From Escherichia coli (GTDB lineage: Bacteria; Pseudomonadota; Gammaproteobacteria; Enterobacterales; Enterobacteriaceae), in NCBI RefSeq assembly GCF_003334305.1, contig NZ_QOWS01000006.1: a stretch of 64,000 nucleotides of DNA, one strand, 5' to 3'. A program made the position numbers and the translations under genes. The notes under the pieces were generated by a model, which was given only the letters and a program-made list of their open reading frames with translations, made no database searches and had not been told where the DNA came from. Position 1 is the first letter of the stretch, and each line of letters begins with the position of its first letter. This document shows positions 53,055 through 62,608 of the stretch, piece after piece.

Positions 53055-53996
53055 ATGATGGAAAACTATAAACATACTACGGTGCTGCTGGATGAAGCCG
53101 TTAATGGCCTCAATATCCGTCCTGATGGCATCTACATTGATGGGACTTTTGGTCGCGGTGGTCACTCACGTCTGATCCTCTCGCAGCTTGGCGAAGAGGG
53201 GCGTTTGCTGGCGATCGATCGCGACCCGCAGGCTATCGCCGTTGCGAAGACTATTGATGATCCGCGCTTCTCCATCATCCACGGACCTTTCTCCGCGCTG
53301 GGCGAATACGTTGCCGAGCGCGATCTTATCGGCAAGATCGACGGCATTCTCCTCGATCTTGGCGTCTCTTCACCGCAACTTGATGATGCTGAGCGCGGCT
53401 TTTCCTTTATGCGCGATGGTCCGCTGGACATGCGTATGGACCCAACCCGTGGGCAGTCAGCCGCTGAATGGCTACAAACCGCAGAAGAAGCCGATATCGC
53501 CTGGGTATTGAAAACCTATGGTGAAGAGCGTTTTGCCAAACGCATTGCCCGCGCCATTGTCGAGCGTAATCGCGAACAGCCGATGACCCGCACCAAAGAA
53601 CTGGCGGAAGTCGTGGCTGCTGCAACGCCGGTGAAAGATAAGTTTAAACATCCCGCGACTCGTACCTTCCAGGCGGTGCGCATTTGGGTAAACAGTGAAC
53701 TGGAGGAGATAGAGCAGGCGCTAAAAAGCTCGCTCAACGTGCTGGCCCCGGGAGGGCGGCTTTCGATCATCAGCTTCCACTCGCTGGAAGACCGTATTGT
53801 GAAACGTTTTATGCGTGAAAACAGCCGCGGTCCGCAAGTTCCGGCAGGGTTACCGATGACTGAAGAGCAGCTCAAAAAACTGGGTGGCCGTCAGCTGCGA
53901 GCATTAGGCAAGTTAATGCCGGGCGAAGAAGAGGTGGCTGAGAATCCTCGTGCCCGTAGTTCAGTTCTGCGTATCGCAGAGAGGACGAACGCATGA
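53055..53996 (+). CDS. rsmH: 16S rRNA (cytosine1402-N4)-methyltransferase
   Basis: Track ORF 52926-53996 is 5'-extended; the ATG at 53055 ([38 protein letters not shown]) gives 313 aa; 1 nt after the mraZ stop. Confidence 0.93.
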
Positions 53997-54358
53997 TCAG
54001 CAGAGTGACAGAAGCTCTAAGCAAAGTTAAAGGATCGATGGGAAGCCACGAGCGCCATGCATTGCCTGGTGTTATCGGTGACGATCTTTTGCGATTTGGG
54101 AAGCTGCCACTCTGCCTGTTCATTTGCATTATTTTGACGGCGGTGACCGTGGTAACCACGGCGCACCATACCCGTTTACTGACCGCTCAGCGCGAACAAC
54201 TGGTGCTGGAGCGAGATGCTTTAGACATTGAATGGCGCAACCTGATCCTTGAAGAGAATGCGCTCGGCGACCATAGCCGGGTGGAAAGGATCGCCACGGA
54301 AAAGCTGCAAATGCAGCATGTTGATCCGTCACAAGAAAATATCGTAGTGCAAAAATAA
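53993..54358 (+). CDS. ftsL: cell-division protein FtsL
   Basis: 121-aa [54 protein letters not shown]...; ATGA overlap with rsmH. Confidence 0.93.
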
Positions 54359-54373
54359 GGATAAACGCGACGC

Positions 54374-56140
54374 ATGAAAGCAGCGGCGAAAACGCAGAAA
54401 CCAAAACGTCAGGAAGAACATGCCAACTTTATTAGTTGGCGTTTTGCGTTGTTATGCGGCTGTATTCTCCTGGCGCTGGCTTTTCTGCTCGGACGCGTAG
54501 CGTGGTTACAAGTTATCTCCCCGGATATGCTGGTGAAAGAGGGCGACATGCGTTCTCTTCGCGTTCAGCAAGTTTCCACCTCCCGCGGCATGATTACTGA
54601 CCGTTCTGGTCGCCCGTTAGCGGTGAGCGTGCCGGTAAAAGCGATTTGGGCTGACCCGAAAGAAGTGCATGACGCTGGCGGTATCAGCGTCGGTGACCGC
54701 TGGAAGGCGCTGGCTAACGCGCTCAATATTCCGCTGGATCAGCTTTCTGCCCGCATTAACGCCAACCCGAAAGGGCGCTTTATTTATCTGGCGCGTCAGG
54801 TAAACCCTGACATGGCGGACTACATCAAAAAATTGAAACTGCCGGGGATTCATCTGCGTGAAGAATCTCGCCGTTATTATCCATCCGGCGAAGTGACTGC
54901 TCACCTCATCGGCTTTACTAACGTCGATAGTCAGGGGATTGAGGGCGTTGAGAAGAGTTTCGATAAATGGCTTACCGGGCAGCCGGGTGAGCGCATTGTG
55001 CGTAAAGACCGCTATGGTCGCGTAATTGAAGATATTTCTTCTACTGACAGCCAGGCGGCGCACAACCTGGCGTTGAGTATTGATGAACGCTTGCAGGCGC
55101 TGGTTTATCGCGAACTGAACAACGCGGTGGCCTTTAACAAGGCTGAATCCGGTAGCGCCGTGCTGGTGGATGTCAACACCGGTGAAGTGCTGGCGATGGC
55201 TAACAGCCCGTCATACAACCCTAACAATCTGAGCGGCACGCCGAAAGAGGCGATGCGTAACCGTACCATCACCGACGTGTTTGAACCGGGCTCAACGGTT
55301 AAACCGATGGTGGTAATGACCGCGTTGCAACGTGGCGTGGTGCGGGAAAACTCGGTACTCAATACCATTCCTTATCGAATTAACGGCCACGAAATCAAAG
55401 ACGTGGCACGCTACAGCGAATTAACCCTGACCGGGGTATTACAGAAGTCGAGTAACGTCGGTGTTTCCAAGCTGGCGTTAGCGATGCCGTCCTCAGCGTT
55501 AGTAGATACTTACTCACGTTTTGGACTGGGAAAAGCGACCAATTTGGGGTTGGTCGGAGAACGCAGTGGCTTATATCCTCAAAAACAACGGTGGTCTGAC
55601 ATAGAGAGGGCCACCTTCTCTTTCGGCTACGGGCTAATGGTAACACCGTTACAGTTAGCGCGAGTCTACGCAACTATCGGCAGCTACGGCATTTATCGCC
55701 CACTGTCGATTACCAAAGTTGACCCCCCGGTTCCCGGTGAACGTGTCTTCCCGGAATCCATTGTTCGCACCGTGGTGCATATGATGGAAAGCGTGGCGCT
55801 ACCAGGCGGCGGCGGCGTGAAAGCGGCGATTAAAGGCTATCGTATCGCCATTAAAACCGGTACCGCGAAAAAGGTCGGGCCGGACGGTCGCTACATCAAT
55901 AAATATATTGCTTATACCGCAGGCGTTGCGCCTGCGAGTCAGCCGCGCTTCGCGCTGGTTGTTGTTATCAACGATCCGCAGGCGGGTAAATACTACGGCG
56001 GCGCCGTTTCCGCGCCGGTCTTTGGTGCCATCATGGGCGGCGTATTGCGTACCATGAACATCGAGCCGGATGCGCTGACAACGGGCGATAAAAATGAATT
56101 TGTGATTAATCAAGGCGAGGGGACAGGTGGCAGATCGTAA
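54374..56140 (+). CDS. ftsI: peptidoglycan D,D-transpeptidase FtsI (PBP3)
   Basis: 588-aa [27 protein letters not shown]...; motifs STVK, SSN, KTG. Confidence 0.95.
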
Positions 56141-60045: not shown

Positions 60046-60047
60046 TC

Positions 60048-61364
60048 ATGGCTGATTATCAGGGTAAAAATGTCGTCATTATCGGCCTGGGCCTCACCGG
60101 GCTTTCCTGCGTGGACTTTTTCCTCGCTCGCGGTCTGACGCCGCGCGTTATGGATACGCGTATGACACCGCCTGGCCTGGATAAATTACCCGAAGCCGTA
60201 GAACGCCACACGGGCAGTCTGAATGATGAATGGCTGATGGCGGCAGATCTGATTGTCGCCAGTCCCGGTATTGCACTGGCGCATCCATCCTTAAGCGCTG
60301 CCGCTGATGCCGGAATCGAAATCGTTGGCGATATCGAGCTGTTCTGTCGCGAAGCACAAGCACCGATTGTGGCGATTACCGGTTCTAACGGCAAAAGCAC
60401 GGTCACCACGCTAGTGGGTGAAATGGCGAAAGCGGCGGGGGTTAACGTTGGTGTGGGTGGCAATATTGGCCTGCCAGCGTTGATGCTGCTTGATGCTGAG
60501 TGCGAACTGTACGTGCTGGAACTGTCGAGCTTCCAGCTGGAAACCACCTCCAGCTTACAGGCGGTAGCAGCGACCATTCTGAACGTGACTGAAGATCATA
60601 TGGATCGCTATCCGTTTGGTTTACAACAGTATCGTGCAGCAAAACTGCGCATTTACGAAAACGCGAAAGTTTGCGTGGTTAATGCTGATGATGCCTTAAC
60701 AATGCCGATTCGCGGTGCGGATGAACGCTGCGTCAGCTTTGGCGTCAACATGGGTGACTATCACCTGAATCATCAGCAGGGAGAAACCTGGCTGCGGGTT
60801 AAAGGCGAGAAAGTGCTGAATGTGAAAGAGATGAAACTTTCCGGGCAGCATAACTACACCAATGCGCTGGCAGCACTGGCACTGGCAGACGCAGCTGGTT
60901 TACCGCGCGCCAGCAGCCTGAAAGCGTTAACCACCTTCACCGGTCTGCCGCATCGCTTTGAAGTGGTGCTGGAGCACAATGGCGTACGCTGGATTAACGA
61001 TTCGAAAGCCACTAACGTCGGCAGTACGGAAGCGGCGTTGAATGGCTTGCAGGTAGACGGCACGCTGCATTTGTTGCTGGGCGGCGATGGTAAATCGGCG
61101 GACTTCAGTCCACTGGCGCGCTATCTGAATGGCGACAACGTGCGTTTGTACTGTTTTGGTCGTGACGGTGCGCAGCTGGCGGCGCTACGCCCGGAAGTGG
61201 CAGAACAAACCGAAACCATGGAACAAGCGATGCGCTTGCTGGCTCCGCGTGTTCAGCCGGGCGATATGGTTCTGCTCTCCCCGGCCTGTGCCAGCCTTGA
61301 TCAGTTCAAGAACTTTGAACAACGAGGCAATGAGTTTGCCCGTCTGGCGAAGGAGTTAGGTTGA
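60048..61364 (+). CDS. murD: UDP-MurNAc-L-Ala:D-Glu ligase
   Basis: 438-aa [32 protein letters not shown]...; GSNGKST P-loop. Confidence 0.95.
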
Positions 61365-62608
61365 TGCGTTTATCTCTCCCTCGCCTGAAAATGCCGCGCC
61401 TGCCAGGATTCAGTATCCTGGTCTGGATCTCCACGGCGCTAAAAGGCTGGGTGATGGGCTCGCGGGAAAAAGATACCGACAGCCTGATCATGTACGATCG
61501 CACCTTACTGTGGCTGACCTTCGGCCTTGCGGCGATTGGCTTTATCATGGTGACCTCGGCGTCAATGCCCATAGGGCAACGCTTAACCAACGATCCGTTC
61601 TTCTTCGCGAAGCGTGATGGCGTCTATCTGATCCTGGCATTCATTCTGGCGATCATTACGCTGCGTCTGCCGATGGAGTTCTGGCAACGCTACAGTGCCA
61701 CGATGCTGCTCGGATCTATCATCCTGCTGATGATCGTGCTGGTAGTGGGTAGCTCGGTTAAAGGGGCATCGCGTTGGATCGATCTCGGTTTGCTGCGTAT
61801 CCAGCCTGCGGAGCTGACAAAACTGTCGCTGTTTTGTTATATCGCCAACTATCTGGTGCGTAAAGGCGACGAAGTACGTAATAACCTGCGCGGCTTCCTG
61901 AAACCGATGGGCGTGATTCTGGTGTTGGCAGTGTTACTGCTGGCACAGCCAGACCTTGGTACGGTGGTGGTGTTGTTTGTGACTACGCTGGCGATGTTGT
62001 TCCTGGCGGGAGCGAAATTGTGGCAGTTCATTGCCATTATCGGTATGGGCATTTCAGCGGTTGTGTTGCTGATACTCGCCGAACCGTACCGTATCCGCCG
62101 TGTTACCGCATTCTGGAACCCGTGGGAAGATCCCTTTGGCAGCGGCTATCAGTTAACGCAATCGCTGATGGCGTTTGGTCGCGGCGAACTTTGGGGACAA
62201 GGTTTAGGTAACTCGGTACAAAAACTGGAGTATCTGCCGGAAGCGCACACTGACTTTATTTTCGCCATTATCGGCGAAGAACTGGGGTATGTCGGTGTGG
62301 TGCTGGCACTTTTAATGGTATTCTTCGTCGCTTTTCGCGCGATGTCGATTGGCCGCAAAGCGTTAGAAATTGACCACCGTTTTTCCGGTTTTCTCGCCTG
62401 TTCTATTGGCATCTGGTTTAGCTTCCAGGCGCTGGTTAACGTAGGCGCGGCGGCGGGGATGTTACCGACCAAAGGTCTGACATTGCCGCTGATCAGTTAC
62501 GGTGGTTCGAGCTTACTGATTATGTCGACAGCCATCATGATGCTGTTGCGTATTGATTATGAAACGCGTCTGGAGAAAGCGCAGGCGTTTGTACGAGGTT
62601 CACGATGA
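61364..62608 (+). CDS. ftsW: peptidoglycan glycosyltransferase / lipid II flippase candidate FtsW (SEDS family)
   Basis: Track start 61361 is a TTG; the ATG at 61364 ([21 protein letters not shown]) gives 414 aa and a TGATG junction with murD. Confidence 0.93.

Follow-up and report, generated by a model that had tools for sequence, protein, structure and literature searches.

Overlaps of -4 and -1 nt are the commonest between adjacent prokaryotic genes (Huber et al. 2019, PMC6728339; review PMC12548453). When native overlapping pairs from Escherichia coli were tested, four of five proved to be tightly coupled in translation, with the remaining pair, bioBF, displaying de novo initiation despite its overlap (Huber et al. 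2019, PMC6728339). Close packing of the dcw genes is likewise part of the textbook architecture of the Escherichia coli cell-division/cell-wall operon; it is real, ordinary and was known before. A literature search retrieved no report of translational coupling demonstrated for dcw gene pairs.

The window analyzed here is a stretch of 64,000 nt from Escherichia coli (contig NZ_QOWS01000006.1, assembly GCF_003334305.1). A sequence-only reading of this DNA had described, between 53993 and 62608, dcw genes joined by overlaps or 1-2 nt gaps, which it took to fit a conserved, translationally coupled architecture. On a joint reading, the region very probably corresponds to the dcw (mra) operon of Escherichia coli, namely its promoter-proximal genes mraZ-rsmH-ftsL-ftsI-murE-murF-mraY-murD-ftsW-murG, with coupling as the inferred component of this reading. 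Positions 52400-64000 are 100% identical to E. coli strain A7, the RefSeq annotation of which was placed on the window by adding 52399 to each locus coordinate. Compared with K-12 MG1655, the window is colinear at 98.8% nucleotide identity, with 129 substitutions over 11,078 nt and 0 indels. More broadly, the locus is present at an identity of at least 95% in 5,425 of 5,426 complete E. coli genomes. The RefSeq A7 and K-12 annotations both place the dcw genes from mraZ to murC in the same order on one strand. The features of the region are as follows.

52514-52543, plus strand: promoter-like sigma-70 element TTGACA-18-TAAACT (pattern match only), located before mraZ where Pmra would be expected.
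52595-53053, plus strand: mraZ, the first gene of the cluster (RefSeq CDS WP_001295770.1), with its stop TAA 1 nt before the rsmH ATG.
53055-53996, plus strand: rsmH (mraW), from sequence, RefSeq and K-12, with its stop TGA overlapping the ftsL ATG (ATGA).
53993-54358, plus strand: ftsL, from sequence, RefSeq and K-12, followed by a 15-nt gap to ftsI.
54374-56140, plus strand: ftsI (PBP3), from sequence and RefSeq.
56115-56123, plus strand: Shine-Dalgarno-like GCGAGGGGA for murE, within ftsI, from anti-SD duplex energy.
56127-57614, plus strand: murE, from RefSeq and K-12, with its GTG start overlapping the end of ftsI by 14 nt and a stop TGA overlapping the murF ATG.
57611-58969, plus strand: murF, from sequence, RefSeq and K-12, sharing ATGA with murE and ending in a TAG 7 nt inside mraY.
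58963-60045, plus strand: mraY, from sequence, RefSeq and K-12, with its ATG 7 nt inside murF (ATGTTAG).
60048-61364, plus strand: murD, from sequence, RefSeq and K-12, with its stop TGA sharing the A of the ftsW ATG.
61348-61356, plus strand: Shine-Dalgarno CGAAGGAGT for ftsW, within the last murD codons, from anti-SD duplex energy.
61364-62608, plus strand: ftsW (RefSeq WP_001295532.1, K-12 b0089), with an ATG whose first nucleotide is also the last of the murD stop (TGATG).
62605-63672, plus strand: murG, from sequence, RefSeq and K-12, sharing ATGA with ftsW and followed by a 53-nt gap to murC (63726).

The promoter-like element is the best such match in 52000-64000 in a pattern scan, agreeing with 10 of 12 sigma-70 positions. 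Its position makes it a candidate for Pmra, as do the titles of two papers cited in PMC5089854 (Hara 1997 and Mengin-Lecreulx 1998). In a dcw cluster of the E. coli type, Pmra would be expected to drive the first nine genes, with no terminators in between. The ten genes from mraZ to murG would be transcribed as a single polycistronic message. Terminator-like hairpins, also assessed by pattern scan only, are not enriched (19 vs 14 +/- 3.8 in shuffles). An Rfam scan of 52000-64000 returned 0 families and hence did not independently corroborate the ftsO sRNA annotated inside K-12 ftsI.

Junctions were read directly from the sequence and then checked against the RefSeq (strain A7) and K-12 MG1655 annotations. 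In order from mraZ to murG, the spacings are +1, -4, +15, -14, -4, -7, +2, -1 and -4. All seven junctions named by the sequence-only reading were recovered, with both annotations in agreement. Four-nucleotide overlaps of the ATGA type join rsmH (stop TGA 53994-53996) to ftsL (ATG 53993), murE (TGA 57612-57614) to murF (ATG 57611), and ftsW (TGA 62606-62608) to murG (ATG 62605). The ftsI stop (TAA 56138-56140) lies beyond the murE GTG at 56127, giving the 14-nt overlap, and the murF stop (TAG 58967-58969) overlaps mraY (ATG 58963) by 7 nt. A 2-nt gap separates mraY (TAA 60043-60045) from murD (ATG 60048), while murD (TGA 61362-61364) and ftsW (ATG 61364) share a single nucleotide in TGATG. Three further junctions were absent from that reading: the 15-nt ftsL/ftsI gap (54358/54374), the sole non-tight junction within its range; the 1-nt mraZ/rsmH gap (53053/53055) just upstream of it; and the 53-nt murG/murC gap. 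From mraZ to murG, 8 of 9 junctions are thus overlaps or gaps of at most 2 nt. The proportion is 9/30 for the other same-strand pairs in the window (Fisher P = 0.003) and 9/18 for the other pairs spaced by no more than 60 nt, that is, operon-like pairs (P = 0.057). Given this marginal difference from operon-like pairs, the dcw genes follow the usual tight-operon pattern and are unusual only in that it runs over ten genes.

The dcw gene order was present in 67 of the 81 analyzed sequences, with truncated versions of the same order in the rest, and it is kept across the 80 other species compared. The claim of a conserved architecture stands firmly for Enterobacterales, with tight spacing in 42-49 of 43-50 loci at the junctions originally named; beyond this order, the exact distances vary and several junctions are wider. 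Among Enterobacterales loci, the E. coli spacing recurs in 37/43 at rsmH/ftsL, 46/48 at ftsI/murE, 49/49 at murF/mraY (-7), 42/50 at mraY/murD, 46/53 at murD/ftsW, and 46/52 at ftsW/murG. The murE/murF ATGA is the most conserved junction of all (65/73 loci), its -4 spacing being found in 48/48 Enterobacterales loci and 17/25 others. The ftsL/ftsI pair mostly displays a -4 overlap in non-enterobacterial relatives.

The GTG start proposed for murE is borne out by both annotations and by its retention at -14 in the 46 of 48 Enterobacterales loci. GTG 56127 is the first possible start in the murE reading frame, one locus (L032) carries ATG at this position, and PDB chain 1E8C begins at MurE Ala2. 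The preceding GCGAGGGGA forms an anti-SD duplex of -8.0 kcal/mol, which ranks in the top 2% when random start-like triplets from the window are scored, and its core gagg(g) is conserved across Enterobacterales. A start at the Leu6 TTG, 1 nt past the ftsI stop, was rejected, as several relatives that retain the GTG have CTG or CTA in place of this TTG. Both the start codon of murE and its ribosome-binding site lie within the last 11 ftsI codons (56105-56137), which encode the tail removed by Prc; PMC9827838 gives V577 as the cleavage site in the 588-aa FtsI. As a smaller possibility, this 11-residue tail may owe its conservation not to protein function but to the murE elements within its codons, namely the ribosome-binding site, the GTG and the initial part of the MurE reading frame.

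At the murD/ftsW junction, TTGATG offers two adjacent start candidates, TTG 61361 and ATG 61364. The sequence-only reading suspected that the TTG assigned by its gene-start track lay 3 nt too far upstream, and rightly so: RefSeq, K-12 and UniProt all begin FtsW at ATG 61364, and this start is supported by comparison with relatives. In all 51 other gammaproteobacterial species with a TGATG or TAATG junction, ftsW retains the ATG that overlaps or adjoins the murD stop. By contrast, the codon at the TTG position is a start-capable TTG in only 8 of these 51 and CTG, CTA or TTA in 42 (CTG 34, CTA 6, TTA 2, ATG 1 and TTG 9 over 52 species including the window). It follows the synonymous third base of the last Gly codon of MurD, such that TTG 61361 is a by-product of the wobble T of GGT and the TG of the TGA stop. 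Initiation at this TTG would yield a 415-residue FtsW beginning MM, as in the gene-start track and some older GenBank records (e.g., AAN78605.1 from CFT073). TTG is a permitted bacterial start and here sits 4 nt past the AAGGAG(T) element. However, the Shine-Dalgarno CGAAGGAGT (duplex energy -8.3 kcal/mol), the aaggag of which is kept in relatives, lies 7 nt before ATG 61364, and ATG is a stronger start codon than TTG. The 415-aa form occurs on 10 contigs, and the 414-aa form, UniProt FTSW_ECOLI, on at least 1000. With the codon seldom TTG in relatives and the neighboring ATG always kept, TTG 61361 was rejected as the ftsW start, and translation from it is extremely improbable.

Two in-frame ftsW starts were reportedly discussed by Khattar et al. 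in 1994. Functional FtsW might arise mainly or additionally from an internal ATG at codon 31 (61454, MGSREKD...), with the stop-overlapping ATG giving a dispensable longer isoform. We consider this rather improbable, despite several observations in its favor. FtsW residues 1-30 were reported to be non-essential, with deletion of residues 1-42 nearly wild type (bioRxiv 10.1101/2022.10.30.514410), and 110 contigs carry the annotation of a 384-aa FtsW. Of 53 Enterobacterales loci, 45 have ATG at the codon equivalent to Met31, and this codon is preceded by a modest SD-like AAGGCUGGG (-5.8 kcal/mol), although the spacing is only 2 nt. Against a Met31 start, codons 2-30 are under protein-coding constraint: their substitution rates fall from third to first to second codon position (0.45/0.24/0.15), a pattern matching that of codons 31-50, and the W-V residues directly before Met31 are conserved as amino acids. 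Moreover, the eight Enterobacterales loci with Ile, Val, Thr or Ala in place of Met31 still retain the stop-overlapping ATG. This replacement and the constraint on codons 2-30 make Met31 unlikely as the sole start. That one gene supplies two isoforms, a long one from the murD-overlapping ATG tied to MurD translation and a short one made independently from Met31, is decidedly improbable; if true, the isoform ratio would let the cell uncouple FtsW supply from the Mur enzymes.

Translational coupling at the dcw junctions is plausible, judged from the spacings. With stop/start overlaps or 1-2 nt gaps at 8 of 9 junctions, the ribosome-binding site of each downstream gene falls within the final codons of its predecessor. 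A ribosome ending one gene would be released at or beside the next start codon, where it would either re-initiate (termination-reinitiation) or hold the site unfolded until another ribosome arrives (facilitated initiation). Translation efficiency would be set gene by gene through the embedded Shine-Dalgarno sequences, and expression of peptidoglycan-precursor enzymes and division proteins would be linked without forcing equal amounts. The spacings are those of overlapping or closely adjacent stop and start codons, as in coupled pairs.

It is possible, though somewhat unlikely, that the overlaps reflect only genome compaction or mutational drift, every gene relying on its own Shine-Dalgarno sequence for initiation without functional coupling to its upstream neighbor. 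SD-like sequences precede most starts, 6 of 9 junction starts from rsmH to murG ranking within the top ~5% when compared with random start-like triplets, and those of ftsL, murE, murF, mraY, ftsW and murG are strong (-6.5 to -9.7 kcal/mol) and lie inside the upstream coding sequence. With most downstream starts possessing their own SD, independent initiation is also feasible. However, the SDs of rsmH and murD are weak (-4.0 and -3.9 kcal/mol), and both genes start 1-2 nt after the preceding stop, as would be expected under re-initiation. RNA structure does not appear to occlude the initiation regions, as the predicted unpaired probability from -15 to +5 around the ten starts spans percentiles 0.31-0.97 of random operon positions. 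This predicted lack of extra base pairing is in keeping with independent initiation and argues against obligatory unfolding, but not against re-initiation. The drift of exact spacing between orders, the ease with which -4 spacings evolve, which partly accounts for their abundance (review PMC12548453), and the de novo start of bioBF (PMC6728339) also favor independence. Set against these are the exact spacings held at three junctions in 46-49 of 48-50 Enterobacterales species and the coupling of the other four native E. coli pairs (PMC6728339).

The analysis has little significance beyond quality control. The gene-start track misplaces the ftsW start by one codon, an error shared by a few older GenBank records such as that of CFT073. 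A general test follows: if the last sense codon of the upstream gene contributes its wobble base to a candidate start, one should check whether relatives keep that start.

Compared with known systems, the locus is closest to the K-12 dcw/mra cluster b0081-b0090 (mraZ to murG), which it matches in genes, order, and start and stop positions at all junctions. The two differ by strain-level substitutions only; a few of these fall near junctions, and none alters one. MurE-MurF fusion proteins, which are natural Mur chimeras (PMC10214165), join the products of the same adjacent genes, whereas in the window a stop codon and a -1 frame shift keep murE and murF as separate reading frames. Termination-reinitiation pairs with -4 (NTGA) or -1 (TGATG/TAATG) spacing (PMC6728339, PMC12548453) share their geometry with 4 of the 9 dcw junctions, and SD motifs inside the upstream gene are typical of both. 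Unlike such pairs, the dcw cluster also has overlaps of -14 and -7 and gaps of +1, +2 and +15.

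The region belongs to the E. coli dcw (mra) cluster and makes up its promoter-proximal part. Positions 52400-64000 are matched at ≥95% identity in 5,425 of 5,426 complete E. coli genomes and are 100% identical in strain A7, whose RefSeq annotation supplied the gene coordinates (window coordinate = locus coordinate + 52399). For comparison, regions around FtsW homologues were fetched from 80 species (a single locus each), and the ten dcw genes were placed in them by tblastn; ~53 of the loci are Enterobacterales, and the rest include Shewanella, Pseudoalteromonas, and Kangiella.

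Genes of the dcw region (RefSeq annotation of A7), with the junction to the preceding gene as read from the raw sequence (negative, overlap in nt; positive, gap in nt) and the loci sharing the exact E. coli spacing (Enterobacterales; other orders)
52595-53053, mraZ
53055-53996, rsmH
53993-54358, ftsL; ATGA, -4; 37/43; 4/22
54374-56140, ftsI
56127-57614, murE; GTG at 56127 and TAA ending at 56140, -14; 46/48; 0/25
57611-58969, murF; ATGA, -4; 48/48; 17/25
58963-60045, mraY; ATGTTAG, -7; 49/49; 4/26
60048-61364, murD; TAA-TC-ATG, +2; 42/50; 0/26
61364-62608, ftsW; TTGATG with TGA at 61362-61364, -1 to ATG and -4 to TTG; 46/53; 1/26
62605-63672, murG; ATGA, -4; 46/52; 6/27
63726, start of murC

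The sequence-only reading had described overlaps or short gaps at the seven junctions from rsmH/ftsL to ftsW/murG that carry counts here, and all agree with the raw sequence. Absent from it were ftsL/ftsI, at +15 the sole loose junction within 53993-62608, mraZ/rsmH (+1), immediately 5′ of that range, and murG/murC (+53), at which the run of tight junctions stops. With overlaps and gaps of ≤2 nt counted as tight, 8/9 junctions from mraZ to murG qualify, compared with 9/30 same-strand neighbor pairs elsewhere in the window under RefSeq annotation (Fisher P = 0.003); among the pairs ≤60 nt apart, which are likely operon partners, 9/18 are equally tight (P = 0.057). The dcw spacing is thus real and nonrandom yet an ordinary E. 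coli operon signature, notable only for its ten-gene run. Other tight pairs in the window include rsmA/pdxA (-4), pdxA/surA (-1), and leuB/leuA (-1), and the commonest codirectional gene spacings in prokaryotes are -4 and -1 (PMC12548453); overlapping gene pairs amount to ~15% in most groups (PMC6728339). RefSeq overlaps in the 35190-38441 (-) region, thiQ/thiP (-17) and thiP/thiB (-25), exceed any in dcw, and a comparative check of the thiQ/thiP/thiB start assignments may be warranted.

Gene order is identical wherever visible among the 80 loci. The per-order spacing counts bear out the proposed conserved architecture strictly within Enterobacterales and reduce it to a tendency outside, where exact spacings differ. 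There, with tight defined as -20 to +3, ftsI/murE (20/25), murE/murF (23/25), and murF/mraY (25/26) remain tight though their spacings shift, whereas rsmH/ftsL (5/22) and mraY/murD (3/26) have opened. The ftsL/ftsI junction (54358-54374) follows the opposite trend: E. coli and its near relatives leave 15 nt between the two genes, but 17/22 non-enterobacterial gammaproteobacterial loci are tight there, most often at -4, a spacing found in 16 loci overall.

The sole practical result concerns the ftsW start, for which the gene track's TTG (61361) had been suspected of lying 3 nt too far upstream. This TTG arises where the last MurD sense codon (GGT, Gly) meets the TGA stop: its first T is the third base of that codon, and its TG comes from the stop. 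Across 52 sequences including the window, the ATG of the TGATG/TAATG junction is present in all. The triplet before it reads CTG in 34 cases, CTA in 6, TTA in 2, and ATG in 1, leaving only 9 with TTG (Escherichia, Pseudocitrobacter, Kluyvera, Citrobacter, and one Enterobacter); this triplet tracks the synonymous GGC/GGT choice in murD. Since most relatives lack the TTG and all keep the adjoining ATG, we reject TTG as the start; on these comparative grounds, the question is settled in favor of ATG (61364), with the TTG call an annotation slip. RefSeq, K-12, and UniProt likewise use the ATG, and an AAGGAG(T) element (61348-61356) lies 7 nt 5′ of it. Public databases hold three E. coli FtsW start versions, of which the 414-aa product occurs in at least 1000 contigs, a 384-aa version starting at Met31 (61454) in 110, and the 415-aa TTG version in 10, including the CFT073 record AAN78605.1; the last probably explains the start in the gene track.

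Khattar et al. reportedly raised a second ftsW initiation at Met31 in 1994. As the main start, it is countered by the coding-like codons 2-30 and by eight Enterobacterales loci in which Met31 is replaced by Ile, Val, Thr, or Ala and the stop-overlapping ATG is retained. In 22 Enterobacteriaceae with the 30-codon extension, differences at codon positions 1/2/3 are 0.24/0.15/0.45 for codons 2-30, nearly equal to the 0.23/0.12/0.43 of codons 31-50, a pattern that marks the extension as translated and constrained. Met31 may still serve as a minor second initiation site. The extension is not of fixed length: among Enterobacterales, 13 to 35 codons precede the conserved W-V-M-G motif. This cytoplasmic N-terminal segment (61364-61453) is missing in more distant homologues, and similarity to Pseudomonas FtsW structures starts only at residue 48. 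FtsW is reported not to need residues 1-30 and to be nearly wild type without residues 1-42 (bioRxiv 10.1101/2022.10.30.514410).

The GTG start proposed for murE, 14 nt inside ftsI, also holds. No start-capable codon of the ORF comes before GTG 56127, which follows the Shine-Dalgarno (SD)-like GCGAGGGGA (-8.0 kcal/mol) and is kept at -14 in 46/48 Enterobacterales loci. The GTG persists even in one Xenorhabdus whose FtsI ends earlier; one Pantoea symbiont has ATG at the equivalent position. In PDB 1E8C, the chain of E. coli MurE begins at Ala2. Leu6 TTG was rejected as a start, being CTG or CTA in several species. The SD, the GTG, and the first four murE codons all lie inside the last 11 ftsI codons (56105-56140), which encode the C-terminal PBP3 peptide cut off by Prc after Val577 (PMC9827838). 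Almost every Enterobacterales FtsI tail terminates in GGRS or SDRS, a conservation that may reflect the overlapping murE start rather than tail function.

Ribosomes ending one dcw gene may reinitiate on the next, or assist initiation there, by analogy with the four of five other native overlapping E. coli pairs in which termination-linked translation was demonstrated (PMC6728339); a literature search found no experiment on coupling of these dcw pairs. Obligatory coupling through unfolding of an occluded ribosome-binding site is unsupported, as all ten initiation regions are predicted to be of ordinary accessibility. Independent initiation, with no functional coupling at most junctions, is a live if less likely alternative because most genes carry their own SD: SD-like sequences within the upstream genes are strong for ftsL, murE, murF, mraY, ftsW, and murG and weak for rsmH and murD, both of which start 1-2 nt past the preceding stop.

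TTGACA-18 nt-TAAACT at 52514-52543 (+), which scored highest among sigma-70-like matches in the region, lies ~50 nt 5′ of the mraZ ATG, the expected site of the operon promoter Pmra. A G+C-rich hairpin (55999-56017, +; 6 G-C pairs, weak T-tract) near the ftsI 3′ end, ~110 nt 5′ of the murE start, was the top terminator-like match in a scan with no overall enrichment of such sites. An Rfam release 15 scan of 52000-64000 gave no matches. Between leuO and ilvI, RefSeq places a 45-nt "hypothetical protein" CDS (WP_128566915.1; 48428-48472, -).

The small regulatory RNA FtsO (b4810), annotated within the K-12 ftsI CDS, has an identical counterpart at 55446-55619 (+). The dcw genes share the layout of K-12 MG1655 b0081-b0091, and the two sequences are colinear, differing by 129 substitutions over 11,078 nt without indels and with unchanged junction spacings. 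The junctions thus restate the annotated structure of the reference E. coli dcw cluster, which is already known and nothing new.
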